A stretch of 64,000 bases of DNA from assembly GCA_017511805.1 (NCBI GenBank), contig JAFWJA010000013.1, positions 594 to 64,593 on the forward strand, given 5' to 3'. The translations under genes and the position numbers were made by a program. The notes beneath the pieces were generated by a model that saw only the letters and a list, made by a program, of their open reading frames with translations, was not told the DNA's origin and ran no database searches. Shown here in pieces: positions 2 to 38,334 of the stretch. Each line of letters opens with the position of its first letter. Position 1 is the first letter of the stretch. This DNA is from Bacilli bacterium. Its GTDB lineage: Bacteria > Bacillota_I > Bacilli_A > RF39 > UBA660.

Positions 2-2584
2 GTAACATATTATGCTAAATGGACTGGTGATATATCAGATGCTTCATTTGCTTATAGTTCATTTATTCTTAGCGTAGGTGATGAAGATGATATTGTTATA
101 AATAATTCTTCTGATTATGAATCTGTAACTTATACTTCTAATGATACAAGTATCGTTACAGTAAATAATAGTGGTCACTTAACTGCTGTTGATGATGGTG
201 AAACAACTATTACAGTTACAGGTTCTAGATCAGGTCATACAAGAACAATTAATGTTAAAGTAACAGAAGAAATAACAGAATTTGTTGTACACTTTGATTC
301 AATGGGTGGATCAAGTGTAAATGATATGAATGTACCAAAAAATACTGCTATTGGATCATTACCAGAAGATCCAATATTAGCAGATAATATATTTGCAGGT
401 TGGTATACAAATACAAATTATTCAACAAAAGTTACAACAGATACAGTTATAAGAAGTGATGTAACATTCTATGCTAAATGGATACCAGAAAATGCAGTAG
501 CGGAGATTAATCATTCATACTTTACTTCATTACAAGATGCATTTGATTCAGAAATGACTGGTAAGACTACAATTATATTATTAAAGGATATAAGTGTTAA
601 TAATACATATTTAAATCTATATACTAAGAATCTAGGTAAAGATATTGTGTTAGATTTAAATAATAAAACAATTACAGGTACTGGTAGTCAAACTATTAAA
701 ACTAAAACATCTTTAGAAATAAAGAATGGTACTATCACTCAAAGTTCTTCAAATGGTACTATAGATATTGGTTCTGGAGGACATTTAATTATAAATAGTG
801 GAACAGTTATTAATACTGGTTCAAGAGCTGCTATATATAATGATGGTGGAACAGTTGAACTAGGTGGAACAGTTAATATAACTTCTAACGCGGAATGGGC
901 AGGTAATAATAATAGAGGAACTGTTCAAAATAAGAGTGGAACAACTATTATAACAGGTGGAACTTATATTAATACTCGTTCATCTAATTCATATGCAGTT
1001 TCAGCTACTGTAGGAACATTAACAATAGGAACAAAAGATGATATATATAATACATCTAATATAGTTATTCAAGGTGAAACAGGTGGTATTTATTCAGCAG
1101 TTAATTATTCTCTATATGATGGAATGATTAAAGGTATAACAGCTGCTGTTGAGAATGAAAGTAAAATAACTAGTATTGAAGATAATGCTACTAAAGTTAA
1201 TGATGTAGATGGTAGTTATAATATTTTATATTATACTGTACCAAATAATAAATATAGAATAGATCTTGATGCAGGTGAAGGTACTGTTAATCCAACATAT
1301 ATATTAATAGATGCTGGTGATCAAATAGGTACACTTCCAACACCTACAAGAGGAGTATATACATTTGATGGTTGGTTTGATTCAAATGATGTAGAAGCTG
1401 ATCCAACACATCAACCAACAAGTAGTGAAACATATTATGCTAAATGGCATTATGAAGCATCTAATGAAATAGTTGAATTTAGAACAACAAATGATGCTAT
1501 GGCAGAGTATTATGATAAAATTGATACATGGAAGGTTAGTTCAAGTAACTTCCCATCATGGTCATCTAGTAATAACTCACCAAATTGGGCATTAGACGCA
1601 ACTGAAAATACACCTATGAAAAATAATTTTGATGCTAATAACTGTCAATGTGCTGATGGACAATGTTCATCAAGTGGAACAGTAGCTTGTGATAAGCCAA
1701 AAGGATATTCAACAGGTTTAAGTGAAAAAGTAAACGTTTACTTATCTGATGCAGTTACTAAAGCAAAAGGAGATTTAGTTACATATGCTAAATCAAATAA
1801 TGGTGTAATATATAACTTAATCCCTGGACAAGTATATTATTGGGAAGCAGAAAGTGATGAAAACGTTCATGGTTATGTTAAATTTACTGGTGAAAGAAGA
1901 ATATTAGATACAGGAGATGTTAGAAATACTCGTGATCTAGGAGGATTACCAGTAGATACAGATTCTGATGGAACTATAGATGGAGAATTAAAGTATGGTA
2001 AATTATTTAGAGGTATAAAACTTAATTCAGCTTCAAGTGTTACAGAATTAGTTAATTTAGGAGTAACTGAAGAGTTTGATTTAAGAGAATCTAATAGTGA
2101 TCCATATAAATTATCAGATGTATCTGGTAAAAAATATCATAGAATAGAAGCACAAAACTATTATGTAAATTATAATCCTGATAATGCAACAGAAATGGGT
2201 TATTACAATATGACAAGAGCAGCTGTTAAATATGCTATGGAAGAAATAGTAAATGGTGAAAATATATACTTCCATTGCCGTATTGGAACAGATAGAACAG
2301 GTACTGTTGCTTATGTTCTAGAAGGATTACTTGGTGTTCCTGAAGAAGATCGTATACAAGATTATGAATTATCATTCTTCTATGGATTAATTAGAATTCA
2401 CCGTTATCATAATGAAAAACCTGGTTCTTCAGTAGGAACAGGTAAAGAAAGATTTGTTTATATGCATAATTTCATGCCAACAAATTCTGATATTTATGAT
2501 TGGTATATGGCAGGTTCAACTAATGTATCTGAAGACCAAGCATTAATTAATTCATTTAGAACAAAGATGATTAATTCGTACTAA
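2..2584 (+). CDS. Multidomain surface/secreted protein, 5'-partial (runs off the left edge): Ig-like (Big_2-type) domain, Listeria-Bacteroides (Flg_new) repeats, beta-helix module, C-terminal protein-tyrosine-phosphatase-like domain
   Basis: The frame of the tracked ORF (302..2584) stays open back to base 2 (VTYYAKWTGD...YTSNDTSIVTVNNSGHLTAVDDGETTITVTGS). There are G-W-[YF]...YAKW repeats. A module beginning AEINHSYFTSLQDAFD...IILLKD ends in SLYDGMIKG, the same pattern as the giant ORF modules. The C-terminus reads NTRDLGG...LFRG...DLRES...FHCRIGTDRTG, with the CX5R P-loop at 2273-2302. Confidence 0.8.
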   Translation, partial: VTYYAKWTGDISDASFAYSSFILSVGDEDDIVINNSSDYESVTYTSNDTSIVTVNNSGHLTAVDDGETTITVTGSRSGHTRTINVKVTEEITEFVVHFDSMGGSSVNDMNVPKNTAIGSLPEDPILADNIFAGWYTNTNYSTKVTTDTVIRSDVTFYAKWIPENAVAEINHSYFTSLQDAFDSEMTGKTTIILLKDISVNNTYLNLYTKNLGKDIVLDLNNKTITGTGSQTIKTKTSLEIKNGTITQSSSNGTIDIGSGGHLIINSGTVINTGSRAAIYNDGGTVELGGTVNITSNAEWAGNNNRGTVQNKSGTTIITGGTYINTRSSNSYAVSATVGTLTIGTKDDIYNTSNIVIQGETGGIYSAVNYSLYDGMIKGITAAVENESKITSIEDNATKVNDVDGSYNILYYTVPNNKYRIDLDAGEGTVNPTYILIDAGDQIGTLPTPTRGVYTFDGWFDSNDVEADPTHQPTSSETYYAKWHYEASNEIVEFRTTNDAMAEYYDKIDTWKVSSSNFPSWSSSNNSPNWALDATENTPMKNNFDANNCQCADGQCSSSGTVACDKPKGYSTGLSEKVNVYLSDAVTKAKGDLVTYAKSNNGVIYNLIPGQVYYWEAESDENVHGYVKFTGERRILDTGDVRNTRDLGGLPVDTDSDGTIDGELKYGKLFRGIKLNSASSVTELVNLGVTEEFDLRESNSDPYKLSDVSGKKYHRIEAQNYYVNYNPDNATEMGYYNMTRAAVKYAMEEIVNGENIYFHCRIGTDRTGTVAYVLEGLLGVPEEDRIQDYELSFFYGLIRIHRYHNEKPGSSVGTGKERFVYMHNFMPTNSDIYDWYMAGSTNVSEDQALINSFRTKMINSY

Positions 2585-3289: not shown

Positions 3290-3298
3290 TGATATAAT
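3290..3298 (+). promoter_or_regulatory. Extended -10 promoter element (TGaTATAAT)
   Basis: tgatataat lies 26 nt upstream of the ATG at 3324. A G-rich RBS (agggggg) sits in between. Confidence 0.45.
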
Positions 3299-3323
3299 TT
3301 ATTTAATTAGGGGGGAATAATAA

Positions 3324-3971: not shown

Positions 3972-3979
3972 TTTTTTTA

Positions 3980-4008
3980 TTGACTAAGGTCTTTATTAAA
4001 TATATAAT
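3980..4008 (+). promoter_or_regulatory. Sigma-A-type promoter (TTGACT-17 nt-TATAAT)
   Basis: ttgact at 3980-3985 and tataat at 4003-4008, with exactly 17 nt between them. It lies upstream of the RBS/ATG at 4033. Confidence 0.6.
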
Positions 4009-4032
4009 TATATATAATAGGAGTATGATAAT

Positions 4033-7000
4033 ATGAAGAAGTATAGAAATGTATTTATAGTTGCTTTTTTTATTGCTTTTTTCTCAACATTAGTTTTTTT
4101 ATCATATAAAGTAAATTTTGGAAGAATAATGTCAGATATTTCTTCTGTTACAAGAGAAACAATTAAAACATATGATGTAGGTGATATTGTAAAATTTGAT
4201 CCAGTTAATTATGAGATATGTGATGAAGATAGTTCTAGTAGTACTTGTCATAATTGGTACGTAGTAAGTAAGAATAACAATGTTTATGATTTATACTATG
4301 AAGGATTTGAATCTAATATGCTTTGGACAGTTAAAAATCCTGTGGATATAATTAAATCATATACTGAAAACTGGGATAATAGATTAACTATGGATAATTC
4401 ACATGATATTACATTAACCGATGACTATGGCTATTATTTTAGTGAAACAAAAGCTAGAATAATAACAGTAGATGATTATTATAATATAGATGAGTCAGTA
4501 AGAAGAAAACTATTAATTCCATATAGTCCAGAACTAAATCCATCTACACCTAGATATAAATATATGATTATTAATCCAGGTGAAGAATGTATATCTTTTT
4601 TTGGTGAAGCAGATCAATATGGTACAGGTGTTATTACTACTATGACTTATAGTAATAACATAGAGGGTGGTTATAATCCTAGTGTATATATTAGACCATT
4701 AATAAATCTTGATTTAGAAAATGGTGTAGGTAATGCATATCATGTTGTTACTGAACACGAGGTTGAATTTGTAGTAGAAGGATCTACTTATGGTGATAAA
4801 CAAACTATTATAGAAAATAATTTAGTACAAAAACCAGAAAATCCTATAAAAGAAGGGTATAGATTTAAATATTGGAGTCTAGAAGAAAATGGAAGTGCAT
4901 ATAACTTTGGAACTCCAGTAACAAGTAGTTTTTATTTATATGCTGTATTTGGTGAAATAGATCCAAGACAAAAAAGATCATTTGAATTATATGACACAAT
5001 AGATTTTGATCCAGTTAATTATGAATTTTGTGATGAAAATTATGAAGGGGATACTTGTTATCAATGGACTGTAATTAGTAAGAATGAAAATGAATATGAT
5101 ATTTATATGAATTATGCATTACCATCTATGGGATGGAGTACTGCTAATCCTGTAGATGTCATTAAGAGTTATACAAGTAGTTGGGATTCTCAGTTAACAG
5201 TAGATTCCTCATATGATGTAACTGTTAATCCAAATTATGGTTATAAATTTAGTGAAACAAAAGCAAGAATGCTATTAGCATCTGAATATAATAATTCTGG
5301 TTCTAATATAGATAAAGTTGTTAGAAGAAATGTAATTGTAACTCTATTAAATCCTGATAATAGATACATAGATTTAGTTAGAACTGATACTGAGTATACA
5401 ACAACACCATCAACTAATAATTATAATTTAATTGACTACTATTCATTTGATAGTAATGCATCGGGTACTTATGAATATAAAGCATATGTTATTCCGGTTG
5501 TTCATATTAACTTAGATAATGGTATTGGTAATTCTGAAGAAAGAGATAGAAAAAAATATACTTGTAGAAGAGCAACTAAGAATATTACTTTAGGTAAACT
5601 AAATACTGTAGGAACTTTAGAATCTGGTGATGAATTTGATTGTGATGTTGATGGTAAAGGATATAGAGAAAGATTTTACTATGTAACTGATTTAGATTCT
5701 AATAATGATTATGGTGTATTATTATATAATCAAAATGTAAAACAAGGTAATATATATAATTTTATTTGTTATAATGACAATGGTTGTCCAAGAGAAGATA
5801 GACAGTATTTTAAATATGATGATAATCCATTTCAAAATGGACCTAGAACTGCAATAACACAGTTACCAACAACAAGTCAGTGGACAAATATTTCTTTATA
5901 TAATAATGTAAGAAACATATATGATACTAACAAGAATAAGATAGTAAGTAACTTTAGTTATGAAGGAAAGGCAGCTAGATTATTAACATATGAAGAAGCA
6001 TTAAAGGCTTGTGGTGTTGAATATAGAAAAATCTATGATTCTTATATTTCAATTCCACTAAATGAACAATGTTTCTATTTAACTGATAATCTTCATTCAC
6101 ATTCTGGTGATGTAGATACAGATAAGTGGATGGAAAAAGGGTTACCAAGATTAACAAAATATAATGGACTTCCATGGGCATACTGGTTAGAAAATGTATT
6201 TGTAAGTAGTTATTTAGATGATCATGGTCGCCCAGTATATGATTATAACAATCCAAGAGTTATGAGAATGTTTGGTAATTATCAAGGTGAGGAGATGATT
6301 ACCATTGAAAATGGTAATGATGAATCAGATAAAGCAATAAGACCTGTAATTGAAGTTAAAAAAACTAAAATATATTATGGTTTAAAAGCAAATGTTACAT
6401 TTAATGATGAAGAAAGATTAACTGTTAAAACTATTGATTTAGGATCAACAGTAACACCAGTTGATAACCAAGGCAAAACTAATTATCATTTTAAACATTG
6501 GAGTTTAACAAAAAATGGTGCTGAATTTAATTTTAATACATCTATTAGTGAAGATATAACTTTATATGCAGTATATGAAATAGATAGATATAACATTACT
6601 TATAATTTAGATGGTGGTGTAGTAACAGGTAACCCAAGTACTTATACACCAGAAGATACATTCACTTTAAATAATCCAACAAAAGAAGGATATAAGTTCT
6701 TAGGATGGATAGGAACTGATTTAACTGATAAAACTATGACAGTAACAGTTCCAGTTGGTTCAACAGGTGATAGAGAATATACTGCTAATTATGAAGAAAT
6801 AGAAGATGAATGTAAGATTTATATAGCAAGTAGTGTTTACTCTGTGGATAATGATAATTTAGTAATTAGTGGTGTTCCAAAAGATGAAACAGAAGAACAA
6901 ATAGAAAGTAATTTAAATATTGAAGGTAAACTTGAAAAGATTACTAGTGAAACCGTAACTGTTTCATGTAATGATACTAAGAAAGTATATACTATTCAAA

Positions 7001-7152
7001 GAATATGGATGCCACATACTGGTATGAATATAATTAAATTCTCATTTATATTCTTATATAGTGCAGGTATAATCACAGTATTAATGTTTATAAATAGAGA
7101 AAGATTAAAGAATAAACTACTAAAAGTATCTATAAGAAATAAAAAGGAATAA
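4033..7152 (+). CDS. Cell-surface protein: N-terminal signal anchor, three copies of a Cys-containing domain of unknown function, three Listeria-Bacteroides repeats, C-terminal sortase-type sorting signal
   Basis: N-terminus is MKKYRNVFIVAFFIAFFSTLVFL. Internal duplication: YDVGDIVKFDPVNYEICDED...CHNWYVVSKNNNVYDLY...ETKARII versus YDTIDFDPVNYEFCDEN...CYQWTVISKNENEYDIY...ETKARML. Repeats of the form GY.F..W....G..F.F.....D..LYAV are present. The C-terminus is MPHTG, then a hydrophobic stretch, then a basic tail. Confidence 0.8.
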   Translation: MKKYRNVFIVAFFIAFFSTLVFLSYKVNFGRIMSDISSVTRETIKTYDVGDIVKFDPVNYEICDEDSSSSTCHNWYVVSKNNNVYDLYYEGFESNMLWTVKNPVDIIKSYTENWDNRLTMDNSHDITLTDDYGYYFSETKARIITVDDYYNIDESVRRKLLIPYSPELNPSTPRYKYMIINPGEECISFFGEADQYGTGVITTMTYSNNIEGGYNPSVYIRPLINLDLENGVGNAYHVVTEHEVEFVVEGSTYGDKQTIIENNLVQKPENPIKEGYRFKYWSLEENGSAYNFGTPVTSSFYLYAVFGEIDPRQKRSFELYDTIDFDPVNYEFCDENYEGDTCYQWTVISKNENEYDIYMNYALPSMGWSTANPVDVIKSYTSSWDSQLTVDSSYDVTVNPNYGYKFSETKARMLLASEYNNSGSNIDKVVRRNVIVTLLNPDNRYIDLVRTDTEYTTTPSTNNYNLIDYYSFDSNASGTYEYKAYVIPVVHINLDNGIGNSEERDRKKYTCRRATKNITLGKLNTVGTLESGDEFDCDVDGKGYRERFYYVTDLDSNNDYGVLLYNQNVKQGNIYNFICYNDNGCPREDRQYFKYDDNPFQNGPRTAITQLPTTSQWTNISLYNNVRNIYDTNKNKIVSNFSYEGKAARLLTYEEALKACGVEYRKIYDSYISIPLNEQCFYLTDNLHSHSGDVDTDKWMEKGLPRLTKYNGLPWAYWLENVFVSSYLDDHGRPVYDYNNPRVMRMFGNYQGEEMITIENGNDESDKAIRPVIEVKKTKIYYGLKANVTFNDEERLTVKTIDLGSTVTPVDNQGKTNYHFKHWSLTKNGAEFNFNTSISEDITLYAVYEIDRYNITYNLDGGVVTGNPSTYTPEDTFTLNNPTKEGYKFLGWIGTDLTDKTMTVTVPVGSTGDREYTANYEEIEDECKIYIASSVYSVDNDNLVISGVPKDETEEQIESNLNIEGKLEKITSETVTVSCNDTKKVYTIQRIWMPHTGMNIIKFSFIFLYSAGIITVLMFINRERLKNKLLKVSIRNKKE
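7009..7152 (+). other. Atypical cell-wall sorting signal (M-P-H-T-G, TM helix, basic tail)
   Basis: Codons atg cca cat act ggt at 7009-7023. These are followed by MNIIKFSFIFLYSAGIITVLMFI and then NRERLKNKLLKVSIRNKKE. Confidence 0.5.
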
Positions 7153-7202: not shown

Positions 7203-8549
7203 ATGAAGAAGATGTTTTTACAGGATATAGTTAAAGTTACAAAAGGTAGACTTGTTTGTGGTGATGAGAATTTAGAATTAGGTAGTTTTTCTATAAATAC
7301 TAAGACTATAAATAATGATGAGGTATTTGTTGGAATAAAGGGTGAAAAAGTAGATGGATCTAAATTCTATTTAGATGCATTTAATAATGGTGCTATAGGT
7401 GCTATTATTAATAAGGAATCTGTTGATATTAAAGAAGTAGAAGGCAAGTTTATATTAGAAGTAGATGATACTGTTATAGCATTACAAGAAATAGCTAAAT
7501 ATAAAAGAAGTTTATATGAAGATTTACTAGTTGTAGGAGTTACTGGTTCAGTTGGTAAAACTAGTACTAAAGATATAATAGCGTTAACTTTATCTAATAA
7601 GTATAAAGTATTAAAAACTGAAGGTAATTATAATAATGAATTAGGTTTACCGTTAACAATATTAGGTCTTAAAGATGAAACAGCATTAGTACTTGAAATG
7701 GGTATGGATGGTTTTGGTCAACTTAGTACTTTATCTAAAATAGGTAGACCTAAATATGCAGTTATTACTAATGTAGGTACTGCGCATATAGCTAATTTAG
7801 GTTCTAGAGAAAATATATTAAAAGCTAAATTAGAAATATTAGATGGACTAGATAAAGATGGTAAATTATTTATCAATAATGATAATGATATGCTTAATAT
7901 GTGGAATAATAAAGAAAAGAAATCTAATGTAGTAACATTTGGTATAAATAATAAAAGCGATTATACCGCTACTAATGTTAGTTATGATGAATTAACTACT
8001 TTTACTTGTAATAATGAAGAATACAAAGTAAATGTAGGTGGTGAAGCATTTGTTTATAATGCACTATCCGCAATTGCAATAGGTACTACTTTAGGTATAG
8101 ATAAATCTATGATTAAGAACAGTTTAAGTAATATAGTTCTTACTAAAAACAGATTACAAGAAATAGATAAAAAAGGTTATAGGATTATAAGTGATTGTTA
8201 TAACGCAAACTATGATTCTATGAAAGAAGGTTTATCTAATTTAGGTAAATATAAAGATAAAAGAAAAATTGCTGTTTTAGGTGATATGTTAGAACTAGGA
8301 GAATATTCAAAAAATCTACATGAAAAAGTAGGAGAAGAAGTTCTAAATAATAATATAGATATACTTGTTACAGTAGGAACTGAAGCTAAATATATAGCAA
8401 ATATAGCTAGTAAATCAGTAGAGGTACATGAATTTGATAATAATAAAGATGCAATTAAATACTTAAATGAGATAATAAAAAAAGATGATGTAATATTAGT
8501 AAAAGCATCTCATGGTATGAATTTTACAGAAATAGTAGAAAATATATAG
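7203..8549 (+). CDS. murF: UDP-N-acetylmuramoyl-tripeptide--D-alanyl-D-alanine ligase
   Basis: Mur-ligase P-loop VGVTGSVGKTSTKD. Length and overall pattern (NNELGLPLT, DCYNANYDSM, LGDMLELG) are typical of MurF. Confidence 0.9.
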   Translation: MKKMFLQDIVKVTKGRLVCGDENLELGSFSINTKTINNDEVFVGIKGEKVDGSKFYLDAFNNGAIGAIINKESVDIKEVEGKFILEVDDTVIALQEIAKYKRSLYEDLLVVGVTGSVGKTSTKDIIALTLSNKYKVLKTEGNYNNELGLPLTILGLKDETALVLEMGMDGFGQLSTLSKIGRPKYAVITNVGTAHIANLGSRENILKAKLEILDGLDKDGKLFINNDNDMLNMWNNKEKKSNVVTFGINNKSDYTATNVSYDELTTFTCNNEEYKVNVGGEAFVYNALSAIAIGTTLGIDKSMIKNSLSNIVLTKNRLQEIDKKGYRIISDCYNANYDSMKEGLSNLGKYKDKRKIAVLGDMLELGEYSKNLHEKVGEEVLNNNIDILVTVGTEAKYIANIASKSVEVHEFDNNKDAIKYLNEIIKKDDVILVKASHGMNFTEIVENI

Positions 8550-8684: not shown

Positions 8685-9830
8685 ATGAAGAATATGGGGA
8701 TTATAAAAAATAAGACAAATTATTTATTTTTATCACTATTTTTAGTATATATTTTCTTATATAGAATGCTTATAATTCCTAAGTTTTTAAAGTATTCAGA
8801 AAGTATTACTTCTGTCTTTTTAATTTTTATGTTTATTTTATCAATTATGTTTTATGGATTTAAAAAGACAACTAATACTAATTTTAAAAAGAATGTTCTT
8901 AGAAAAGTATTAAAAATAACTGGTATATATTTCTTACTAATTTATTTTATTGGATTATTTACTGGTTATTTATCTAATGCGTATTCATTAAATCCTATAT
9001 CAATCTTTAATAATATATTTTTTCAAATAATTATTATAGTAATGATTGAATTAATTAGAAGTAATTTTATAAATTACAACAAAGGTGATAAAAGAATAAT
9101 AGCGTTACTTGTTATATTACTTACTATTTTTGAAATAATACTTAATTTTAAAATGGAATATATAAGTAATACAGAAGCTATATTTAAATTTATTACTTCT
9201 AAAATATTACCAATAGCTTTTAAAAATTATATGTGTTCATATTTAACATATTATACTGATTTTGAAACTTCACTTGTTTATTCATTAATAACTGGTTTAT
9301 ATAAATATTTAGTTCCAATAGAACCTAATTTAGATAATTTATTAATTTCACTTATAAATATTTTAATTCCGTTTATTATAGTTATGAGTGTTTCTAAATA
9401 TAGATTTAATTATGATGAGACAAGAGAAAATATAGTGAGCAAGAAATATGTTAGAAAGTCTGATATACCATTAATAATTCTCCTTGGAATATTAGTTTTA
9501 CTAGTATTTGGAGTTGGACCATATAAAGTGGTTGGTATAAGATCCGGTTCTATGTCACCTGCGATTAATGTTGGAGATGCAGTTTTGTTAGAACAAAATG
9601 TATCTAAAGAAGATTTAAAAGAAAATGATATAGTTGCTTATACAAATAAAAATAATGAAACTGTTGTTCATAGAATAATAGCAATAAATAAAGATGGTAC
9701 TTATATAACTAAAGGTGATCATAATAACACTGCTGATAAAGATTATGTAAGTATAGATCAAATAACAGGGAAGGTTAAATTTAGAATACCATATATAGCT
9801 TATCCTGCTGTATATTTTGATAGGAGATAA
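8685..9830 (+). CDS. Fusion protein: polytopic membrane domain (about 8 TM, unknown family) plus a C-terminal SipW-type (ER/archaeal-type, Ser/His) signal peptidase I domain
   Basis: The C-terminal approx. 120 aa carry GIRSGSMSPAINVGDAVLL (Ser box), VVHRIIA (His where bacterial-type SPases have Lys) and TKGDHNNTADKD (GD.N box). The N-terminal approx. 260 aa are hydrophobic. The true start may be the ATG at 8694, which has better RBS spacing. Confidence 0.8.
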   Translation: MKNMGIIKNKTNYLFLSLFLVYIFLYRMLIIPKFLKYSESITSVFLIFMFILSIMFYGFKKTTNTNFKKNVLRKVLKITGIYFLLIYFIGLFTGYLSNAYSLNPISIFNNIFFQIIIIVMIELIRSNFINYNKGDKRIIALLVILLTIFEIILNFKMEYISNTEAIFKFITSKILPIAFKNYMCSYLTYYTDFETSLVYSLITGLYKYLVPIEPNLDNLLISLINILIPFIIVMSVSKYRFNYDETRENIVSKKYVRKSDIPLIILLGILVLLVFGVGPYKVVGIRSGSMSPAINVGDAVLLEQNVSKEDLKENDIVAYTNKNNETVVHRIIAINKDGTYITKGDHNNTADKDYVSIDQITGKVKFRIPYIAYPAVYFDRR

Positions 9831-9831
9831 C

Positions 9832-10395
9832 ATGAGTAAAAATTTTAAATTGTTTACTTTGTTTGTAGTATGTGCAATATCATTTATGATAGCGTTAATG
9901 ACATATTATAACGATGATAAAAACTATACAATCTTATTTATATTTTTATTAGTAGTTAGTTTAGGATATATGATTTATATAATGTTTCATAAAACTGATA
10001 AAAAAGCAGTTTACAAGAAAAAGATAAAAAAGATTATGAAAGTATATCATTCAAAACTAGTTAGAATAAATGATAACTATGAACTAACTAATGAAAATAT
10101 AGTTAAAGCAAAAAACTTAGAAGATATATTTGATTTATCAGAAGAATTTGATAGACCAATAGTTTATTTGGAAGAACCTGAATCTTGCTTATTCATTCTT
10201 CAATATGGAGAAGATATTTTATACTATATACTTAAACAAGATGAAGAAAAGGAAACTAAATTTGAAATAGCTCTAAGAAGTTATAAAGAAAGAAATAAGA
10301 AAACAGAAAAAGAATTATTATCGAATATTAATAAAACAACAATAATTCAATTAAAGAACAATAAGTTCTATAAAATAAAACCAATTAAAAAATAA
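9832..10395 (+). CDS. Small two-TM membrane protein, paralog of 35204..35755
   Basis: The tracked ORF starts at a TTG (9817). An ATG at 9832 follows an AGGAG at 9822-9826. It shares ...EDIFDLSEEFDRPIVY... and a ...NKTTIIQLKNNKFYKIKP C-terminus with the 35204 gene product. Confidence 0.7.
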   Translation: MSKNFKLFTLFVVCAISFMIALMTYYNDDKNYTILFIFLLVVSLGYMIYIMFHKTDKKAVYKKKIKKIMKVYHSKLVRINDNYELTNENIVKAKNLEDIFDLSEEFDRPIVYLEEPESCLFILQYGEDILYYILKQDEEKETKFEIALRSYKERNKKTEKELLSNINKTTIIQLKNNKFYKIKPIKK

Positions 10396-10416: not shown

Positions 10417-10975
10417 ATGAATAAATTAGTTAATTTAATCAGAAATAATAAAACTAAATTTATTCTTTTTGCTATGGCTATATTAATAGCAAGTATTACA
10501 TTAGTAACAGCTTTATTAAGTAGTAATTTAAATATTAATGGTACTGCTTATATTGAAGAAAGTAGTTGGGTTATTTATTTTACTGATGTTAGAAAGAGTA
10601 CTGATTCTGTTGCATCAGATAATGATGCTAGAATAGTTAATTATGAAAAAACTAAAATTGAATTTTCAGCAGACTTACATAGAGGTGGAGACTTTTATGA
10701 GTTTACAGTATATACAGTAAACGATGGATCTATAGATGCGATGGTAGATTCGATAGAAAAGAGTGCTTTAACAGAAGAACAATTAAAATACTTAGAATTT
10801 AATGTTACTTATGATGATGGAAGGCAAATTCAAAGATGTGATCCACTTGATGCTGGAACTAGAAGAAGAGTAAAAGCAATTGTTAAATATAAAGACGGAA
10901 TAGATATGAGTGATTATCCTGATGAAGATGTTCATTTAGATTTATTCTTTAATATAAACTATGTACAAAAAGATA
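10417..10975 (+). other. N-terminal signal-anchor plus approx. 185-aa module shared with the 187-aa and 226-aa proteins (tentatively TasA/camelysin-like)
   Basis: By-eye alignment of three stretches. First, LLSSNLNINGTAYIEESSW versus ALQTQLEINGNTTIDAVGW. Second, GGDFYEFTVYTVNDGSIDAMV versus PGDFYEFTVDIVNAGTIDAKI versus PGQYYAFSVDIKNEGNLDAKV. Third, the C-terminal D..L.L...I.YV[QE][KD]. Confidence 0.75.
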
Positions 10976-13900
10976 ATGCATGTACTCCACAAGATTTTGG
11001 TGATGAACATGTACTTACAATTGTTCCAAATGGAGGTATTTATCAAGGAAGAACAGATGAAATAAGAGTATATCTTGAAGAAGGAGATACTTATACATTT
11101 ACTGAACCAACTAGAGAATTCTATAACTTTACTGGTTGGGAAGGTGATCCTGCTGAAGGAACATATACACTAGAAGATAAAGTATTCACAATGGGTAAAG
11201 AAAATGTTACAATGACTGCTTCTTGGGAAGAAGGAGACTATGTAGCAAGAATAATGAATGTATATTATCCTTCAATTCAATTAGCATTTGATGCGGCTGG
11301 TAATACTTGGGAAGATAATACAGTATATTTATTAAAAGATACTACAGAAGATCCTACAAATAATACTGATGAAAGTTTTGTATTTAATTTAGGTGGACAT
11401 ACAGTTACAGGAACACTTACAAATAGTGTTGATGGTAATTTAACTATAGTAAATGGTAGATTTGAAAATGAAGATGAAAATGAAATAACTGTTAGAAACT
11501 ACGGTATACTTACTATGGGTGTTGATGATGATGATGTACAAGTAGAAAGTAGTATAGCTATTTGTGGTGAAACTATTGGATTACAAAATGAAGCTGGTAG
11601 TGAATTCTATTTCTATGATGGTTACTTACAAGCAGTACATGCTTTAGTAGGTGGATATACTGATAAAGCTGATGGTTACTATGTAATAGTTGATTATAGA
11701 AAATCTATTAACAAAGATAGAGTATACTTAGTTAAGAATAATAACAGAGCAGTTGCTAAAACGACTACTAATGGAGATTTATATTACTATAACTTACAAA
11801 GTGCTATAGAAGAAGTAGAAGGTAATAAAAAAGATAATCCATCTTTAACTGATTCAGATTATATTATAACTGCAATAAGAAGTTTTGAAGCTGCTTATGA
11901 AATAGATGTACATAATAATTCAAGAATATTCTTTGATACTGATGGTTATAATATAGATTTTGGTGAAAACATTACTAACGATGGATACTTTAATATTTAT
12001 AATGGACAAGATAGTATTAGTACATTAAAGATGGCTAAGACTATTGCAAATAACGGTTCATTAATAATTAATAATCTATTATTTGAAGAAACTACTAATT
12101 CAAATATTATTAATAATACTGGTACATTAGCAATAACTAATTCAACGTTACATTCAAAATATGGTAATGCAGTTAATAATAGTGCAAATGGTACTGTTAG
12201 TTTAGATAATAATACATCATTAAAATCTGATGATGGATATGGATTAAATAACTCAGGTTCTAATTTAACAATAGGTGCAGGAACAATATATGGATTTAGT
12301 AATAGTGGTACTGCTACTATAACAGGTGGAAATTATATTACATTTGTTGATAAAACACAAAATGAATATAATACAAGATATACTAATGGTATATATAATA
12401 CTGGAACTATTAATATGAATGGTGGTAGTGTTCAAAATAATATATCTACTAATCCAATTGTTAATAGAGGAACATTTAATTATTATGATGGTGATTTAGA
12501 TTCTAGTACTACATTAATTGAAAACTATTATGGTACAGTTAATATTTTAGATAATGAAATATCTACAACAGGAACTGCAATTAATAATGGTACAGTTAAT
12601 ATTAATGGTGGTGATTTAATATCAGATACTACTACAATTACTGGATCAACTAATGTAACTGTTACATCAGGTGAAGTTAAATCAAATGAAGGAACAGCAA
12701 TTAGTATTTCTGGTTCAGTAAATGTAAATGGTGGTACTGTTACAGGTAAGACACAAGCTATTTCAACTAATAACTTTACTATTAGTTCAGGAACAGTTAC
12801 TAGTGAAGGGGCAGGTGTTAGTGCTAGTTCATCAAATGTATCAGGTGGAACAATCACTTCATCAGGTGTAGGTTTATCAACAACTAATTTAAGTATGACA
12901 GGTGGTACTATTACTTCTACTGATAATACAGGTGTATATGTATCTAATGATGGTACAATTACTGGAGGTAATATTAATGGTGATCTATATGGACTATATA
13001 CAAATAATAAAATTACTTTAGGTAGTAATGATGAAAATATAAGTACAGATAGTCCAGTTATTACTGGTAATAGTTATGGTCTATATATGAATGGAAATGA
13101 CAACAATTTCTATGATGGATTTATTAAAGGTCAAGTAGATAGTTATGAAGGAGAATTTACTGGTTTACCATTAGGAGGATTTGTTGCTAGAGAAGAACAA
13201 ACAATTTCTGATACTAATTATGTAGTAAGTTATGTTTCATTCTATGAAAACTGGTTAAGAGTAGGAGAAAATGAATATAATACAATAGATGCTGCTAGTG
13301 ATGCTATTACTGGAGAATCTGGAACAATAGAAGTTATTAAAGATGCTGAAATTAACTTTGAACAAACATTTAAAGCTAATTCAACAAAAGTAATTACTTT
13401 TGATTTAAATGGTCATAATATTACAACTACTCAAAATATTACAAATAGTAGTTTAGTAAATTTAACTATTACTGATAGTGGTAATGTAGCATTTAATGCT
13501 AAAACAGGTTTTATAAATAATGGAAATGTCACTTTTGAAGGTGGAACTTATACTTCAACTAATCCATATATAGTTACAAATAATAATGTTGTTACAATTG
13601 ATGGAGCAACATTTACAACTAATAGAGATGTTATTAATAATGGTAGTCGTACATTAATAATTAATAGTGGAACTTTAAATGGTTCAACAGTAGTATCAAA
13701 TAGTTATGGTTCAGTTACTATGAATGGCGGTACTATTAATGCTACTAATTATGGTATTATTAACGGTTCATTTGAAATGAATGGCGGTACTATTAATAGT
13801 AATGACTATGGTACAGCATATACAACTGTTCATATAATAGATGGTACGATTCATACTACAAATACTGCAATCTTCTCATATGGTACAAGTACTAATATTG

Positions 13901-16900
13901 AAGGAGGTACTATAACAAGTGATAATAGTACAGCAGTTGATGGAAGAAGATATGTTTCAATTAGCGGTGGTACAATTACAGGTACTATTGGTGTATATCA
14001 TACAACATATTCTGATGGATATTATATATATCAAGATAATATGTCAATTACAGGTGGTACAATTACAGGTACTACTGGTGAAGGTATTATTACATATTGT
14101 GGAACTCTTACATATAGTGATGCTACAACAACTGGTAATACAAATGGTTTAGTAGTAAGTTATGATACAAATAATTATGGAGCAACTGCTGTAATATTAT
14201 TTGGAACTATTAAAGGTAATACAAATGGTATTTTAAATAATGATACTTTAGTATTAGGAACAAATGATGAAACAATATCTAAAACAATACCATTAATTAT
14301 GGGTGGAGATTATGGTGTTTATAATAACGATAATAGAAATGCAACATTTAGATTCTTTGATGGTATTTTAAAAGGTTTAGAAGATGGACATTATGGTTTA
14401 GTTACAGAAATACCTGATGCATCAATGGTAGTAGATGATTATGAATTTATTGATAGAGTAGAATATCAAACTGAATATATAGGTGAACAAGCTGATTGGA
14501 TTAGAGTAGGTACTAGAACATTTAATTCAATTAATAAAGCTGCTGATTATATTGGTGAATCAGGAACTATGTATTTAATGCATGATGTATCTATATCATT
14601 TGATCAAGAATTACCTACTGGTAAAGATATAACATTTGATTTACAAGGTCATAGTTTAATGATGACTAATTCACTAAAAGTAAGTGGAACAGGAACAATA
14701 ATTGATTCAGTTGGTAATGGTGGTATTACTAATATTAAACAAAATGTATTTAATGTTACTGGCAACTTAATAGTTAATTCTGGTACATATACTGCTACTA
14801 ATACAAATACAATTAGTAATTCTGGAACAACTACTATAAATGGTGGAACAATTAGAAGTACTAAAGATGGAGCTCTTGGTATATATACAACAGGAACTAC
14901 TAATGTAACTGGTGGAAGTATTGATGCACCAAGAGGTATAGAAAATAATGGTGGAACACTTAATGTATCAGGTGGTACAGTTAGTGGAACAAATGGTATA
15001 GCTATTACAACAAATGCTACTACAAGTATTTCTGGTAGTGCTTATGTAGTATCTAGTACAACAGATGGTGTATATGTAAGTAATGGAGAAACAACAATTT
15101 CAGGTGGAACAATAAAATCACTTGGAGGAACAGCAATACATCAAAATGATTATTATAATTCAACATTAAATGTAACTGGTGGAGAAATAGAAGGTAATTA
15201 TAATGGTATTACTTCAGGAACAGGTACAACTAATATATCAGGAGGACATATTGTTGGTATAACTAATGTTGGTATAAATGCTGGAGGTACTAATTATATT
15301 ACTGGAGGTACTATTGAAGGAGCAACTTATGGTGTTTATTCAAATGGAACAACAACACTAGGTAATAATGATGGAACTATATCAATAGATGAACCTTCAA
15401 TAAAAGGTGAACTATATGGTTTATATATTTATTCAGGAACAGTTAATTTCTATGATGGTATTTTAAAAGGTATAACTGATGCATATAAAAATGAAATAAC
15501 TAATATACCAGACAGAACTGAGATATTTAATGATGTTGAAAGAATAGATAATTATGATTATAAGACAGCATATTTACTTACTGAATCTGTAATCGCAATT
15601 AATACTACAACAAATGAAGAATATACAAATCTACAAGATGCATTAGATGAAGCAAAAACTGGTGAAACAGTTAAATTACTTGCTAATGTACCTTTATATT
15701 ATGAAGTAATTAATAATAATGATGATCCAATTATATTAGATATGAATGGATTTAGAATTACAACAAATAAGAGAATTATTAATAATAAAAATTTAACAAT
15801 TAAAAATGATGGAGAAAATGATAGTTTCATTAGAACATCATCTGGTATTAATTTAATAACTAATACTGAAACATTAAATGTTTATAATGTTGAAATTATT
15901 AATAATTCATCATCAGTGTATGTAATTAATAATACTGGAACTTTATCACTTACCGAATCAAAAGTAACTGGTATAAATGATATTTCAAGTTCTAATAGTG
16001 TTACTTTAGATCATTCAATTATTAGTTCATCTAACATAGCTATTAATACTAGTGGAAGTTTAAATGTAACAGGTGGAAGTATTTCAGGAAGTTATTATTC
16101 AGTATATGCAAATAATAATAAAACAAATACATTAAGTGAATGTACTATTACTGGAACATATTATAACCAAGGTGGTAATTCAACTACATTTAATTATGTA
16201 ACAATGAATTCAAGTATTCAAAACTATAGTAGTACTATTACTGCTAATGGAAGTGTATTTAACTATAGTATATTAAATGCTGGTACATTTACATTACAAA
16301 ATAATTCAACATTAAATGGTGTTATATCACAAAATAGTGGAACATTAAGTGCTATAAATTCAACTATTAATTCTAGTTCAGATAGAGTAATTTATAACTC
16401 TGGAACAATGAATATAAATAATACAAATGTTAATGTTGATAGAGATTATGGGGATAGTAGAATCTTTAATAATAACGGAACATTAAATATTACAAATGGT
16501 TCAACTATTAGTGGTGGAGCTTCTACTACTGGTGCTAGCTACATGGGTATTTATAGTTATGGTAGTGGTAATGCAACTATAGAAGATTCTAATATTATCT
16601 TAAATAGTAGAAGTAATGTATATGGTGTATATGTTGATTCTACTAATTCACATGTAACTATTAAAACAGGTAATATTGAAGTTACAGGAAGTACATCATA
16701 TGGTGCTTATTTATCCGCAGGTACATTTACAATGGGTGAAGTCGAAGTAGGTGAACATTCTGGTACAGAAGATGCAGATGTTTCACAAACTAATCCAAAA
16801 GTACAATCAATTGGTAGAGCACAAGGTATTGGTGTTAAACATAATAATGCAAACTTTGAATTCTATGATGGTATAGTATGGGGTTCTAAATATTCTAAAC

Positions 16901-19900
16901 CAGATATCACTACATTAGTTGAATTAAACTACGAAGTTACTACTTATGTAGATATGGATAATGGTTATGAATATTCAGTACTTGAATTCATGAAACACGA
17001 TTATCAAGATTCAGTTGCTATATTAAATAATGTTTATTATAGAGATGTACAAAGTGCTATTGATAAATGTGAATCTCCTAATGATGAAATCTTATTATTA
17101 AGATCTACATCAGAAAACACATTAAATATACCAGAAGGTGCAAGTGTTAAGATTAATTTAAATGGTTATTCAATAACAACTAAAGTTACTAACAATGGTA
17201 CATTTAATATATATAATGGATCTCTTCAAAGCTTTGATGAAGTAACAGTTACAAATAATGGTACTTTGATTATAGGTAAAAATGATGGAACTATATCTAG
17301 TACAAATGTCAGAATAATAAGTGAATCAACTGCTATTCAAAATAATGGAACTGTTAAGATGTATGATGGATATATTCAAGGTGTTCCTTCAATTAATGGA
17401 ACTATTGATGAAATACCAAATCTTTCTAGAATTTATACTGAAGTAACAGATCAAATGGAAAGAAAGTACTTACAATCATTAAGTGAAGAAGCAATTATAA
17501 GTGGAGAAACAAAACTTATTATTACAATAGATCCAAATGGTGGTTCATATAATGGTAGTAAAGAGGTACAAGATGTATATGAAAACTATCATGTACCTTA
17601 TACATTATCAACTCCTATTAAAAATGGATGTACATTTATTGGTTGGGAAATAAGTGATCCAAGTGTATTATCTGGAACAGGTACAGAACAAGATCCATAT
17701 GTAATTACATTAGAATTAAGTGATATTACTTTAAAAGCTAAATGGAGTATTAATGATGATGTAGTTGCTCAAATAGGAAATGAATACTATACAACAGTAA
17801 TGTCAGCTATAGAAGATGCAAAAGATAATGATACAATTACAATACTAAAAGACGTTACTGAAGATGTAACAAATAATAAAAATGTAACAATAGATTTAAA
17901 TAATAATACAATCACAGGAGCATTTATTAATAACGGAATATTAAGATTAATAAATGGTGTTATTGAAAATGCAAATGGTACAGGTCTTGTTAATAATAAG
18001 ACATTGACTATGGGTGAAAGAGATGGTGTAGTAGTTACTGATAGTGTTAAGATTATGGGTACTACACTAGGTCTTGAACAAAATGGTTCATTCAATTTCT
18101 ATGATGGTTACATCGAAGGTGATGTAGCTATGTTAGGAAGAACTAATTCAGTTCCAAATGGATATTTCTTATATAATGAAAGAAATGTTATTAAGAATTG
18201 TCAAAGAGTATACTTAATTGGTAATCCTGCTAATGCAGTTGCGGTTATTGAAGAAGGTGGAACTCAATACTTCTTCAGTTTGCAAGATGCTATTAATACA
18301 GCAACAGTTTCTGGTAGTGAAATATTTATAGTAAGAGACTTTGAAGCTACATATACAATAACTGTAGATGAAGGTGCAGATATACTAATTAACATGAATA
18401 GTTATAATATTACAACTGGTAATGATATAACTAATAATGGTACTTTAAAAATATATGATAATTCAGAAAATAAGGGTTCAATTACTAGTGCTAGAACTAT
18501 TACAAATAATGGAACATTAACAATTGAAGATATTAGCATTACAGAATCTAATACAGATAATATCGCAATTAATTCTGTAGCTAATTCTTCACTTAATATT
18601 AAAAATGCTAATATAACAGCTCAAAATGGTTATGCAGTTAAGTCTTTAGGTAATTTAAAACTTGAAGGTGATTATAATCTAGATTCAAATGATTATGCAT
18701 TATATGCTGGTGGTACTACTGAAGATATTACAACTGGTAATATAGCAGGTATGGAATTATATTCAGATTTAAATATTGGTGGTACAGTAAACGTAATATC
18801 TAAAACCGCAGCAATTGCTATAAGACAACCAGTAAATTTAACTATAGATGGTGGTTATTATAAAACAATAAATAGTAATTCAGGTATCTATAATGAAGGT
18901 GGTTCATCTACTATAACTATGAATTCTGGAACTATTGAGGCATACTATGGATTCTCATGTAGTTCAGGAACAACTACTTATACATTGAATGGTGGAACAA
19001 TAACTGCTAGTGATCAAGGTGCTAGAATGTATTCTGATAACTGTAATTTAACAGTTAACGATGGATCTATAACAGGTACTAATTATGGTGTTTATACATA
19101 TGGTCAATCTAATAAAATAAATATTAATGGTGGAACAATTACTGCTACTAGTTATGATGGTATTAGAGATGATAGAAGTAAAAATACAACTAGTTCTGAT
19201 GGTGAATATCCATATTTCTCAAAAATCAATGTATTAGGTGGAACAGTTACAGGTGCAAGATATGGTATTTATGAAATATATTCTAGAACAACTATTGGAA
19301 ATGCAGAAGTAAAAACAACATCAACTAGTAATAGTTATTATGCTATATATAATGGTGATTGGTCTAACTTATATATTAATGATGGAGCATTTGTTAATGC
19401 ACCATATGCATGTGGTATATATTGTTCAGGTGGTGTTGATATTCTTGGTGGAAGAGTAGTAACTGGACATAATAATGGATATGGAATCTACAGTAATTTT
19501 ATGGGATTAAATATGAGTGGTGGTTCTATTGAAGCAACAGGTAATAGCTCATATGGTATTTATTCTAATTCAAATTACTTTAAGATGAATATGACAGGTG
19601 GATCTATTACATCAAAGAATATAGGTGTTGCATTAGTAAATAGTGGAAACTACACAAGAGAATTTACTATGACAGGTGGATCTATTCAAGGTGATACTTA
19701 TGGTGTATATCAAACACAAAACTTTACAACAACTATAGGTAATGCTGAAGATGAGTTATCCACAACAATTCCTTATATAACAGGTGGTTTATATGGATAC
19801 TATAAAACAGCAGGAACTGCATATTTCTATAATGGTAGATTAAGAGGTCTAACATATGGATATAATGATATATTCAATAATATAAGAACAAAGATGGATA

Positions 19901-22900
19901 TCGCAGAGGTAACAGAAACTAGTGATATCGATCAAAATATAAAAACATATTCTGTTTCAGAATATTCATCTACTCCAGAATCAAATACACCAAAAGCTGG
20001 TGCTGGTTATGCAAAAATTACATATCTAGATGATTCTGGTAGTGTATATACTCAAAATCAACAATTTGATTATCCATATATGGGTTCTGAAGATACATTC
20101 ATACCTCTAGATTCAGGTAGATATTCTATAGAAGTATGGGGAGCTCAAGGTGGTACATATGATTCAACATATTATGGTGGCTATGGTGGCTACTCATATG
20201 GTGAAATAGAATTAAGTGCTGGTGAAACACTATATATTAATGTCGGTGGACAAGGTTCTTATACTGGTTCAATAGTCGACGGAGGATATAATGGTGGAGG
20301 ATCTGGTAGATATCGTGGAGGTTCTGGTGGTGGAGCTACATCAATAGCTACAGCATCTGGATTACTTTCAGAATTAGAAAATAATAAAGCTTCAATCTTA
20401 ATTGTCGCTGGAGGCGGCGGTGGAGGAGCTTATACAAATAGTGCAAATGGTAGTGCAGGAGGTTCTGGAGGAGGATTCGAAGGAGCAGACTCAATTATTA
20501 ATGCACGTGGAGATAACGTTCCTAACGGTTTCGGTAAAGGTGGAACTCAAGATCATGCTGGATGTGCAAGTAATAGTAAAAATTACTGTGGTGCATTTGG
20601 TCAAGGTGGTACATCTACAATGGATACTAGTTATTATGGATCCGGCGGTGGTGGCGGAGGCTACTACGGTGGTGGTACTGGTTACTATGATGGTGGAGCT
20701 GGAGGTTCTGGATATAATGGAAACTCTAGATTAACTAACAAAGTAATGTATGGTTACAGTGTTCCAATGACAAACGATGTTTGGATTAATAATTACTTAG
20801 TTGAAAGAGCGGGATTCATCGAAGTAAATGGAGAAACATTTAATAGCTTTGATGATGCATCAGAATATATCATAGATAACCTAAATGGCGTAGGAACAAT
20901 GAATATTGTTAAAGATGCTACTGTTCAAGAAGTAAGTACTATTTCAGGAACAACAATCACTTTAGACTTACAAGGACATGTATTAACAACAACTAAGACT
21001 ATTAACAATGAAGCAGACTTAACTGTTGAAGATGGTTCTACTCTAAAAACAGGAAAGATTGAAGATAATAAAGATAACGCATTTACTAATAAAGGATCTA
21101 TTACATTAGATGGTGTCTATGTTAAATCAACTGGATACAATGTAATCAATGGTTCTACCGGAACAGGTAGTATCGTTCTTAAGAATGGTAGTACACTTGA
21201 AGGTGCTAGAGGTATTTTATTAAATGCAGCTCAAAGTGTTACTATGAGTGATACAACAATTATTGCTACAACTGATGCTATTAGAAGTGATGCTGCTGCA
21301 ACAGTTACAATTAATTCTGGTACAATAACATCTTCAGATGTTGGTATTAGACTTCAAACAGATAATAATACATTAACTATTAATGATATAACTTTAACAG
21401 GAACTAATTATGGTGTTTATAACTATGGTCAATCTAGTGTAATAACTATTAATGACGGTACTATAACTGCTAATAATTATGATGGTGTTAGAGATGATAG
21501 ATCTAAGAGTACAACTACTTCAAATAATGAACATATATATTTCTCTAAGATTAATATTAATGGTGGAACAGTAACTGCTGGTAGATATGCAGTATATGAT
21601 ATTTATAGTTATGTTAATGTATCTAATGCAGAATTAAAATCTACTTCAACAAGTTATGCAGTATATAATTATGATTGGGGTATATTTAGCTTAAATGATG
21701 GAGCATTTATTAATTCTCCTAATGGTGATGGTGTATTCTTAAACTCATCAATTTATATACATGATGGAAGTAGAATTTATGCAGGACATACTTCAGCATA
21801 TGGTATTGGTGGATATTATATAAATGTTGTTATGGATGGTGGTTCTATTGAGACACCAGGATCTAATGCTTATGGTATTAGAGATACTCAATATGAATGT
21901 AATATTAATATCTCAGGTGGTTCAATTACTTCAGGTAATATTGGTGTTGGTTTAAATAATAGTGGAAACTATACAAGACAATTTACTATGACAGGTGGAT
22001 CAATTCAAGGTGATACTTATGGTGTATATCAAACACAAAACTACGCTACTACAATAGGATCTGAAGAAGCAGAATTATCAACAACTATTCCATATATAAC
22101 TGGTGGTTTATATGGATACTATAAAACAGCTGGAACATCTAATTTCTATAATGGTAGATTAAGAGGTTCTACATTTGGTTATAATGATGAATTTAATAAC
22201 ATTAGAACTAAAAAGACTATAGTAACTGAATATGAATCAGGAACTATTGATTCAACATTAACTTATTCAACTGATCAAGTATCTGAATATCCTATTTCAA
22301 ACTATGCTAAAGCAGAAAATGGTTATGTAAAATTAACATATCTTGGTGAAACTGTAGGAACATGTACTAATAACCAAGTATATGAATTTGATTATACAGG
22401 TGAAGAAGAAACATTTACGGTAGAGTGTCCAGGTGATTATAAGATAGAAACTTGGGGAGCTCAAGGTGGTTCTTATAGTGAAACATATAGAGGTGGTTAT
22501 GGAGCATATTCAACTGGTACTATTTCATTAGTATTAGATGAAGTATTATATATTAATGTTGGAGAACAAGGTTACCATTGTGAAGTAAACTCTGGAAGAT
22601 GTGAAGGTACATATAATGGTGGTGGAGTTGCTATCGCAGGTAACCAAGATTCAAGTACTGGTGGTGGTGCTACTTCAATTGCTTTATCATCAGGAACATT
22701 ATATGAATTAGGTCAAAATAGTTTACAATCTGACGTTATCATAGTTGCTGCCGGTGGTGGTGGTACTGGACAAACTGGTTATGGTGGTGAAGGTGGAGGT
22801 CTTCTTGGATCTTCAGGAACTGCTAGTAATCTTGATTATAACCATTTATATGGTGGTACCGGTGCTTCTCAAACAACTGGTGGTACTAGAGAATCTGGTG

Positions 22901-38313: not shown

Positions 38314-38334
38314 ACTTTCGTGTTGGAGGCGTTT

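Follow-up and report, generated by a model that had tools for sequence, protein, structure and literature searches.

To our knowledge, accounts of donor-strand fibres of the TasA type have until now concerned matrix or pilus scaffolds made of small subunits, with tip proteins only predicted, from a few loci of archaea and clostridia. Here we analysed a 64,000-nucleotide stretch of DNA (the window: positions 594 to 64,593 of contig JAFWJA010000013.1, Bacilli bacterium assembly GCA_017511805.1), in which genes extending from 8685 to 38272, all on the forward strand, encode a giant protein of 7,725 amino acids (aa) and two small proteins of 187 and 226 aa carrying the same module. The described system that this locus most resembles is that of AbpX from Pyrodictium abyssi, a TasA-superfamily fibre with an N-terminal donor strand, solved by electron cryo-microscopy (9SJ2), whose linked signal peptidases are unusual in having about 10 transmembrane (TM) helices (bioRxiv 10.64898/2026.01.04.697558). 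A DUF5305 protein has been proposed as peptidase accessory in AbpX and tafi loci (bioRxiv 10.64898/2026.01.04.697558; PMC11821415; PMC12337348). In the case of BsaA, C-terminal fusions are exported and displayed, and in the model put forward the signal peptide holds the subunits until SipW cuts (PMC11580942). The kind of system is already known: donor-strand loci with peptidase, DUF5305, minor subunits and predicted tips have been described across AbpX, tafi, TasA and BsaA.

In our reading, the genes at 8685-38272 probably constitute a Sec-dependent TasA-superfamily fibre cluster that displays cargo, and the module they share very probably belongs to the TasA superfamily as a distant member, with archaeal AbpX as its nearest relative. 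The window system and AbpX have in common a Sec signal peptide ending in [GT]-Y-A followed by an amphipathic, putative donor strand that is unstructured in the monomer, an acidic mature subunit of ~155-163 aa with an isoelectric point (pI) of ~4, a PG...N.GTI.A core motif and an adjacent ~380-aa many-pass signal peptidase I together with a DUF5305 protein. AbpX loci also encode minor subunits and predicted tip proteins. In contrast to AbpX, the module family, which is remote from it (18-25% identity), carries Leu and Thr in its predicted donor strand instead of aromatic and acidic residues; its hosts are uncultured gut or rumen Bacilli/Erysipelotrichaceae known from metagenome-assembled genomes (MAGs); most of its sampled members bear C-terminal cargo and are dispersed; and no SLH (S-layer homology) or LPXTG anchor is encoded in the locus.

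The earlier note on this DNA had proposed that residues 1-185 of the giant protein (10417..33594) are collinear with the whole 187-aa protein (35784..36347) and with the C-terminal 150 aa of the 226-aa protein (36417..37097). This was borne out by BLASTP: giant residues 1-184 aligned to residues 1-185 of the 187-aa protein with 37% identity (E 4e-32), giant residues 50-185 to residues 92-226 of the 226-aa protein with 38% identity (E 3e-26), and the two small proteins to each other with 39% identity (E 2e-27). Judged by these alignments, the three are homologous. A family hidden Markov model (HMM) searched against the six frames of the window retrieved exactly three module copies (E 7.6e-77, 6.9e-62 and 1.2e-51), the next-best match having an E of 0.24. 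All motifs that the note had quoted were found: L-x-I-N-G...I...W follows the TM helix, the core holds PGDFYEF[TS]V..N.G..DA, and the module closes with L.L.[YF].I.YV. One point had to be amended: the core of the 226-aa protein is collinear as proposed, but the likeness is not limited to its C-terminal 150 aa, as the signal peptide and post-TM motif are also kept (IIYA/SLAVNIGIKIN, the slash marking here and below the predicted cut; HMM positions 3-39, independent E-value 3.4e-4). They are parted from the core by a proline-rich insertion of ~50 aa (~36537..36689).

The organization predicted for the three copies is as follows. In the giant, a Sec signal peptide covers residues 1-32 (10417..10512) and ends in V-T-A, cleavage being predicted after A32 by alignment to the family G-Y-A and AbpX T-Y-A/Q-W sites. 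The predicted donor strand, LLSSNLNINGTAYI, covers residues 33-46 (10513..10554), lies in register with the AbpX strand W2-I12 and is the most conserved segment of the family. The beta-sandwich core, delimited by BLASTP, alignment and the family HMM, runs from W51 to Q184 (10567..10968). The 187-aa protein, a module-only protein and the candidate major subunit, consists of a signal peptide (residues 1-30, ending in G-Y-S/A), a putative donor strand A31-I44 (35874..35915) and a beta-sandwich (residues 49-185). In its mature form it has a pI of 4.05 and 15.9% Asp+Glu, an acidity like that described for AbpX-like subunits (pI ~4, ~15% Asp/Glu). The 226-aa protein carries a signal peptide, a donor-strand-like segment S30-N40 (36504..36536) and a core W92-K226, and is a possible spacer or basal anchor subunit; its ortholog in a related locus (L011) lacks the proline-rich insertion. 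The two small proteins end in YVQ and YVEK with nothing beyond, and their genes are read in the same frame, with two stop codons in the stretch 35874-37094.

The link to AbpX was drawn by profile comparison. The AbpX sequence was taken from the preprint supplement and agrees with PDB 9SJ2/9RHP; its profile is shallow, the homolog search having found 5 relatives. When the module profile (269 sequences) was compared with it, hhalign gave a probability of 94.1% (E 1.3e-7) over 146 collinear columns, and 83% (E 8.7e-6) with the core only, while controls with one reversed and 20 column-shuffled profiles did not exceed 0.7%. The family HMM likewise matched six of six AbpX-family sequences, collinearly. 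The AbpX donor strand, QWSETLSLSATI, aligned to ALSTTLNINGT in such a way that its hydrophobic positions 2, 6 and 8 coincide: as ..GYA/ALSTTLNINGT.. is placed onto ..TYA/QWSETLSLSAT.., AbpX W2, L6 and L8 fall on L32, L36 and I38.

The earlier note had related the module to TasA and camelysin through its PGD..N.G motif. The kinship with TasA-type fibre subunits held, and its route runs via AbpX rather than via TasA or camelysin. With a single TasA sequence (checked against 8AUR), only a 20-residue PGD..N.G stretch aligned (hhalign probability 1%), so that the relation to TasA is indirect and a direct one is not demonstrable. Nor can the motif be taken as a sign of that family: sub-threshold Pfam matches among 41 homologs were to Peptidase_M73 in 10 (best E 2.6e-4) and to DUF11 in 16, besides DUF4352, CARDB and fn3, and since the same members match DUF11, DUF4352 and CARDB, we read PGD..N.G as not TasA-specific. 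The TapA model matched one homolog (E 3.6e-4). AbpX itself is named a CARDB domain protein in UniRef. Searching the PDB sequences for the module with phmmer and hmmsearch yielded chance matches only.

To compare folds, structures were modelled with AlphaFold2 (AF2). In the full-length 187-aa model (predicted local distance difference test, pLDDT, 86), residues 6-31 form a TM helix and residues 33-49 a segment of low confidence without structure, and the core is an eight-strand beta-sandwich with pLDDT above 90. In the model of the mature protein (pLDDT 92, predicted TM-score 0.83) the first 20 residues are without structure. Residues 31-49 thus lack secondary structure and have low pLDDT in both models, as was reported for the AbpX monomer. 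Foldseek with the mature model against 350,542 PDB chains placed three TasA-superfamily fibre subunits on top: first the TasA fibre (8AUR), second the thread of Sulfolobus (7PNB) and third AbpA, the bundling pilus of Pyrobaculum (7UEG). Chaperone-usher pilins came next. This evidence is counted by rank and not by E-value, and the TasA-family folds reached the top once the model had been trimmed to the mature protein.

The locus also encodes the processing partners found beside AbpX. The 381-aa many-pass signal peptidase I (8685..9830) is predicted from its hydropathy to have ~7-8 TM helices, and carries at its C-terminus an S26 domain with intact catalytic motifs (S-M, H-R and KGD.N..D), and matches TIGR02228, the archaeal-type signal peptidase I model, with E 3.3e-26 (92 bits, cutoff 51.85). 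It shares 39% identity (BLASTP, E 2e-17) with the 380-aa peptidase adjacent to abpX in P. abyssi, the catalytic domain having the same position in both, and a profile of 26 module-family peptidases aligned with the P. abyssi enzyme over 300 columns (hhalign 99.2%, E 2e-19). The 192-aa protein encoded at 9817..10395, with two TM helices and a C-terminal domain, matches Pfam DUF5305 (E 2.4e-11, 43.9 bits, cutoff 29) and, weakly, SPC25 (E 0.0019); it is the proposed peptidase accessory. Its gene starts with a TTG located 14 bases before the peptidase stop (9817..9830), an overlap that would fit translational coupling between these proposed partners.

A second set of these partners follows further downstream. 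It comprises a 183-aa DUF5305-like membrane protein (35204..35755; BLASTP E 2e-10 to the 192-aa DUF5305 protein) and a full-length, 388-aa paralog of the many-pass peptidase (37106..38272; 31% identity, E 6e-45 to 8685..9830). In the latter the catalytic residues are replaced (Ser to Thr, His to Ser, GDxN lost), and the sequence is probably that of a catalytically inactive pseudo-enzyme. Such a degenerate peptidase was seen in two of the 26 sequences compared, this second copy and one in L011 (6127-7296), the rest keeping the motifs. Each of the two has as neighbours a module gene of the 226 type and two membrane proteins of ~260 aa. In the window the latter are paralogous single-TM proteins of 264 aa (33603..34397) and 254 aa (34406..35170), neither of which could be assigned to a family; the pair recurs beside module genes and peptidase in L011 and in another related locus (L042), and is therefore probably part of the system.

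The arrangement is conserved. Among 78 related loci retrieved, the peptidase is present in 26 and DUF5305 in 28. In 24 of the 26 with peptidase, a ~180-aa module-only gene lies directly upstream of it; DUF5305 comes after, often followed by cargo-bearing module genes. The layout seen in the window, a ~180-aa subunit with cargo-bearing relatives, thus recurs in related genomes, which speaks in favour of the earlier note's reading. In Clostridium sp. CAG:417 (locus L008, 7998-10900), five tandem module-only genes (178-183 aa) stand directly upstream of the peptidase and DUF5305, which suggests several alternative or mixed fibre subunits in this one locus. In L042, which has a syntenic operon, the subunit is followed by the peptidase, DUF5305, the membrane-protein pair and an ortholog of the giant (41% identity across giant residues 190-1526), in this order. 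Cargo-bearing paralogs can also be dispersed: the MAG RGIG2316 gives 21 separate loci with no peptidase nearby.

We then considered the module family as a whole. A word-indexed search with the 187-aa protein gave 287 close relatives, none with a name or a Pfam domain, and an exhaustive profile search gave 6,472 clusters at 50% identity with E <=1e-3, and 1,626 with E <=1e-30. No member examined passes a Pfam or NCBIfam threshold or has a name at source. The module is N-terminal in all 150 of the best matches listed. Of 146 new cluster representatives, 115 (~79%) are counted as carrying C-terminal cargo because they are longer than 250 aa, with cargo of up to 2,212 aa. The giant is therefore one of many possible cargoes and no special case, since most of the sampled family bears cargo, often at sites scattered over the genome. 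All 78 retrieved loci come from uncultured bacteria, nearly all of them MAGs from gut or rumen that bear the label Bacilli, Erysipelotrichaceae, Tenericutes or Bacillota.

Column statistics over the 269 sequences, cargo-bearing members included, placed the best-conserved stretch of the family at the signal-peptide end and the next ~20 residues. G28, Y29 and A30 are conserved in 97, 89 and 88% before the predicted cut, and L32 (87%), L36 (97%), I38 (97%), G40 (100%), I44 (82%) and W49 (99%) after it, with the consensus ALSTTLNINGTSxI following the cleavage site. The core motif reads PGDFYEFTVD..N103.G.TIDA, N103 being conserved in 100%. No conserved strand-like segment was evident after YVQ when cargo-bearing members were inspected for a filling of the groove in cis, and no invariant or near-invariant Lys column exists in the 41-sequence family alignment.

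Beyond its module, the giant protein contains one Flg_new_2 repeat and further repeats that are beta-helix-like. It also has nine glycine-rich domains of the ALK/LTK type (WGAQG... motif), which lie between 20000 and 31500 of the window (giant residues ~3200-7000); the first of these copies was missed when residues 1-4000 were scanned whole with Pfam and was seen with 900-aa pieces. Residues 12-40 form its sole hydrophobic segment, with no second TM helix. The lack of a wall anchor noted earlier could be confirmed by looking for a C-terminal sorting signal: none was found, the four LPXTG-like strings of the giant being all internal with no TM helix after them. The locus 8685-38272 encodes neither an anchor of the SLH or LPXTG kind nor a chaperone or an usher.

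Taken together, these features lead us to propose an assembly closest to the AbpX type that would proceed without chaperone or sortase. The module proteins would be exported by their N-terminal signal peptide and be cut after G-Y-[AS], the conserved G-Y-A serving as site for the many-pass peptidase 8685..9830, which probably acts with the DUF5305 protein 9817..10395. The ~14 residues past the cut would then be a donor strand, loose in the monomer, that enters the sandwich of the following subunit in the manner of TasA, AbpX and BsaA. The acidic 187-aa protein would be the repeating subunit. We infer that the giant joins the same polymer through its N-terminal module and would thereby display an adhesin-like cargo, beta-helix and glycine-rich in kind, of ~7,500 aa. 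By analogy with TapA, which nucleates TasA, and with the BsaA model, a first-entering subunit would come to lie distally; the giant is accordingly a plausible tip or first-assembled subunit, and this placement would replace a wall anchor. More speculatively, the cell-proximal end may be made up of the 226-aa protein, whose proline-rich insertion would be a spacer, and of the inactive peptidase paralog as an anchor.

Several observations weigh against this account. Strand insertion is deduced from homology. None of the three window proteins matches a TasA-related Pfam or NCBIfam model (Peptidase_M73 and SipW-related models, E up to 1). The scores of the top three Foldseek matches are marginal (E 1.6e-3 to 4.3e-3, TM-score 0.31-0.46, probability 0.97-1.00), and with the full-length model Foldseek returned generic immunoglobulin (Ig)-like sandwiches, the thread 7PNB ranking 43rd. 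The many-pass N-domain of the peptidase, taken alone, is not significantly similar to that of the P. abyssi enzyme (probability 0.9%). Hallmarks of the AbpX donor strand are replaced: its aromatic residue at position 2 is a Leu in 87% of the 269 sequences and in all three window proteins, and the acid of its calcium site at position 4 is Thr in 67% or Ser in 22%. Calcium-triggered assembly is therefore doubtful and is not to be assumed. Two homologs, P0121 (480 aa) and P0149 (880 aa), carry two or three tandem modules, or an internal module between glycine-rich domains, and these internal modules have no donor strand; the sandwich may therefore fold, or be stable, without a donated strand. Finally, cargo on most sampled members suits a one-to-one docking device or a pure export handle equally well, and both stay live alternatives for that reason.

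The better of these two alternatives, which we nevertheless hold to be unlikely, takes the module as a handle for export and processing without polymerisation. An N-terminal pro-region and a juxtamembrane Ig-like domain would direct surface proteins to the peptidase/DUF5305 complex, the cargo being released or kept by an uncleaved signal anchor and the 187-aa protein being a stand-alone paralog. The frequency of cargo among the cluster representatives (115/146) speaks for it, as do the 21 dispersed cargo loci of RGIG2316 with no peptidase nearby and the internal tandem modules without strand. The peak of conservation at the cleavage site would equally be expected of a recognition element for the peptidase. 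Left unexplained, however, are the ~14 post-cleavage residues, amphipathic, of beta type and in register with a proven donor strand; the fact that the closest relatives in sequence and in fold are all subunits of donor-strand fibres; and the presence of module-only genes, up to five in tandem in L008, beside the peptidase.

Less probable still, in our estimate, is docking by strand insertion without a long fibre, in which the strand of a cargo protein would plug one-to-one, or in short chains, into a membrane acceptor. This acceptor could be, for example, the 226-aa protein held by the inactive peptidase paralog, giving a sortase-independent anchor, with the 187-aa protein as adaptor or cap. 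Many different cargo paralogs per genome sharing one common handle would fit such a device, a 226-type subunit does adjoin the inactive peptidase in the window and in L011, and BsaA oligomers were reported to be membrane-anchored (PMC11580942). However, cleavage site and donor motif look normal in the 226-aa protein, the inactive peptidase, being found in 2/26 sequences, cannot be a general requirement, and the characterised relatives all form long fibres. That the module is a generic CARDB/DUF11-like Ig domain, its motif and sandwich being convergent or clan-wide and its peptidase a housekeeping enzyme, is very improbable: the sub-threshold DUF11, DUF4352 and fn3 matches beside Peptidase_M73, the weak Foldseek scores and the UniRef label of AbpX would agree with it, but the 146-column collinear match spans the signal-peptide end and the donor strand with clean controls, the three best PDB matches are without exception fibre subunits of the TasA superfamily, and the peptidase is of the rare AbpX-linked many-pass kind, syntenic with module genes and DUF5305 in 24/26 loci holding it.

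Other known surface architectures were rejected. The proteins are not type IV pilins or pseudopilins: there is no G/F-T-L-x-E leader, the conserved G-Y-A lies after the helix, and the only related match is to ComGF (E 0.069). A sortase pilin or LPXTG surface protein would need a C-terminal sorting signal, which is absent from the giant and from the small proteins. A BsaA-type isopeptide-locked subunit was discarded for want of a conserved Lys for the Asn-Glu-Lys triad in the 41 sequences.

The fibre cluster that we favour can also be set against more distant systems. Like TasA/TapA/SipW of Bacillus subtilis (8AUR, 5OF1), it would employ a secreted beta-sandwich subunit with an N-terminal donor strand; the TasA operon likewise has a dedicated signal peptidase of the endoplasmic reticulum/archaeal type and an accessory protein, TapA, with a related strand. 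In contrast to TasA, to which it has no significant direct sequence match, the window module is ~100 aa smaller; SipW has few TM helices as against the ~7-8 of the window peptidase, and neither a DUF5305 gene in the tapA-sipW-tasA operon nor giant cargo fusions have been described. BsaA/SipW of Clostridium perfringens (PMC11580942) offers TasA-family donor-strand exchange and several operon paralogs that suggest heteropolymers, but BsaA has an Asn-Glu-Lys isopeptide lock, whereas the module family has no conserved Lys, and the peptidase architecture differs.

The haloarchaeal tafi, or Tat bundling, pili (TafA/C/E/F, the TafD peptidase and the DUF5305 protein TafG; PMC11821415, PMC12337348) are encoded in a similar cluster with peptidase, DUF5305, major and minor pilins, a predicted tip and an anchor. 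They share a common pilin-like domain and assembly by strand donation, a likeness drawn from their description and not from sequence. Their hosts are archaea and their export is by Tat, whereas the window system would use Sec. With the tip adhesins of chaperone-usher pili (FimH, PapG) there is an analogy only: the protein has two parts, a pilin domain that enters the fibre through strand complementation and a portion that is adhesive. In those adhesins, however, the pilin domain is C-terminal, has no strand of its own and requires chaperone and usher, whereas the window module is N-terminal, has its own predicted strand and is encoded without either.

The cluster is bounded on the left by a murF-like gene (7203..8549) and on the right by a miaB-like gene (38320..39762), both assigned by reading the sequence, the latter with radical-SAM (S-adenosylmethionine) and TRAM Pfam matches. 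To the left of this boundary, 4033..7152 encodes a 1,039-aa surface protein with Listeria-Bacteroides repeats that ends in W-M-P-H-T-G, a hydrophobic stretch and a basic tail. This end resembles a variant sortase signal and, if it is one, other proteins of the organism may be anchored by sortase, unlike the giant. At the 5' end of the window, an open reading frame (2..2584) without in-frame stop in 2..301 continues beyond the edge, and its visible part pairs Listeria-Bacteroides repeats with a C-terminal Y_phosphatase3 domain (E 1e-21; HCRIGTDRTG), which is unusual for a surface-type protein.

In the literature searched we found no description of the module sequence family, its size or its restriction to uncultured gut and rumen Bacilli, nor of the predominance of C-terminal cargo including the 7,725-aa protein, of the dispersed paralogs or of the inactive peptidase paralog. 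Going beyond this locus, we tentatively put forward, as a possibility rather than as our expectation, that this TasA-superfamily module is a universal N-terminal plug in uncultured gut and rumen bacteria of the Bacilli/Erysipelotrichaceae type. Dozens of otherwise unrelated surface proteins per genome, as large as 7,725 aa, would after their export be cleaved by the peptidase/DUF5305 complex and attached by their strand to a common fibre or membrane base of ~155-aa subunits, a sortase-independent display for which the inactive peptidase paralog might provide the anchor.

If the module does polymerise or dock, the rule G-Y-A/A-L-S-T-T-L-N-I-N-G ... W, followed by PGDFYEF, would find such surface proteins in metagenomes, and the module would be a self-assembling handle that tolerates very large C-terminal cargo. 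It would also explain how giant adhesin-like proteins are held on the surface without LPXTG anchors. Our analysis suggests that, in uncultured gut bacteria, huge adhesin-like proteins may be attached to a fibre or anchor by strand insertion.

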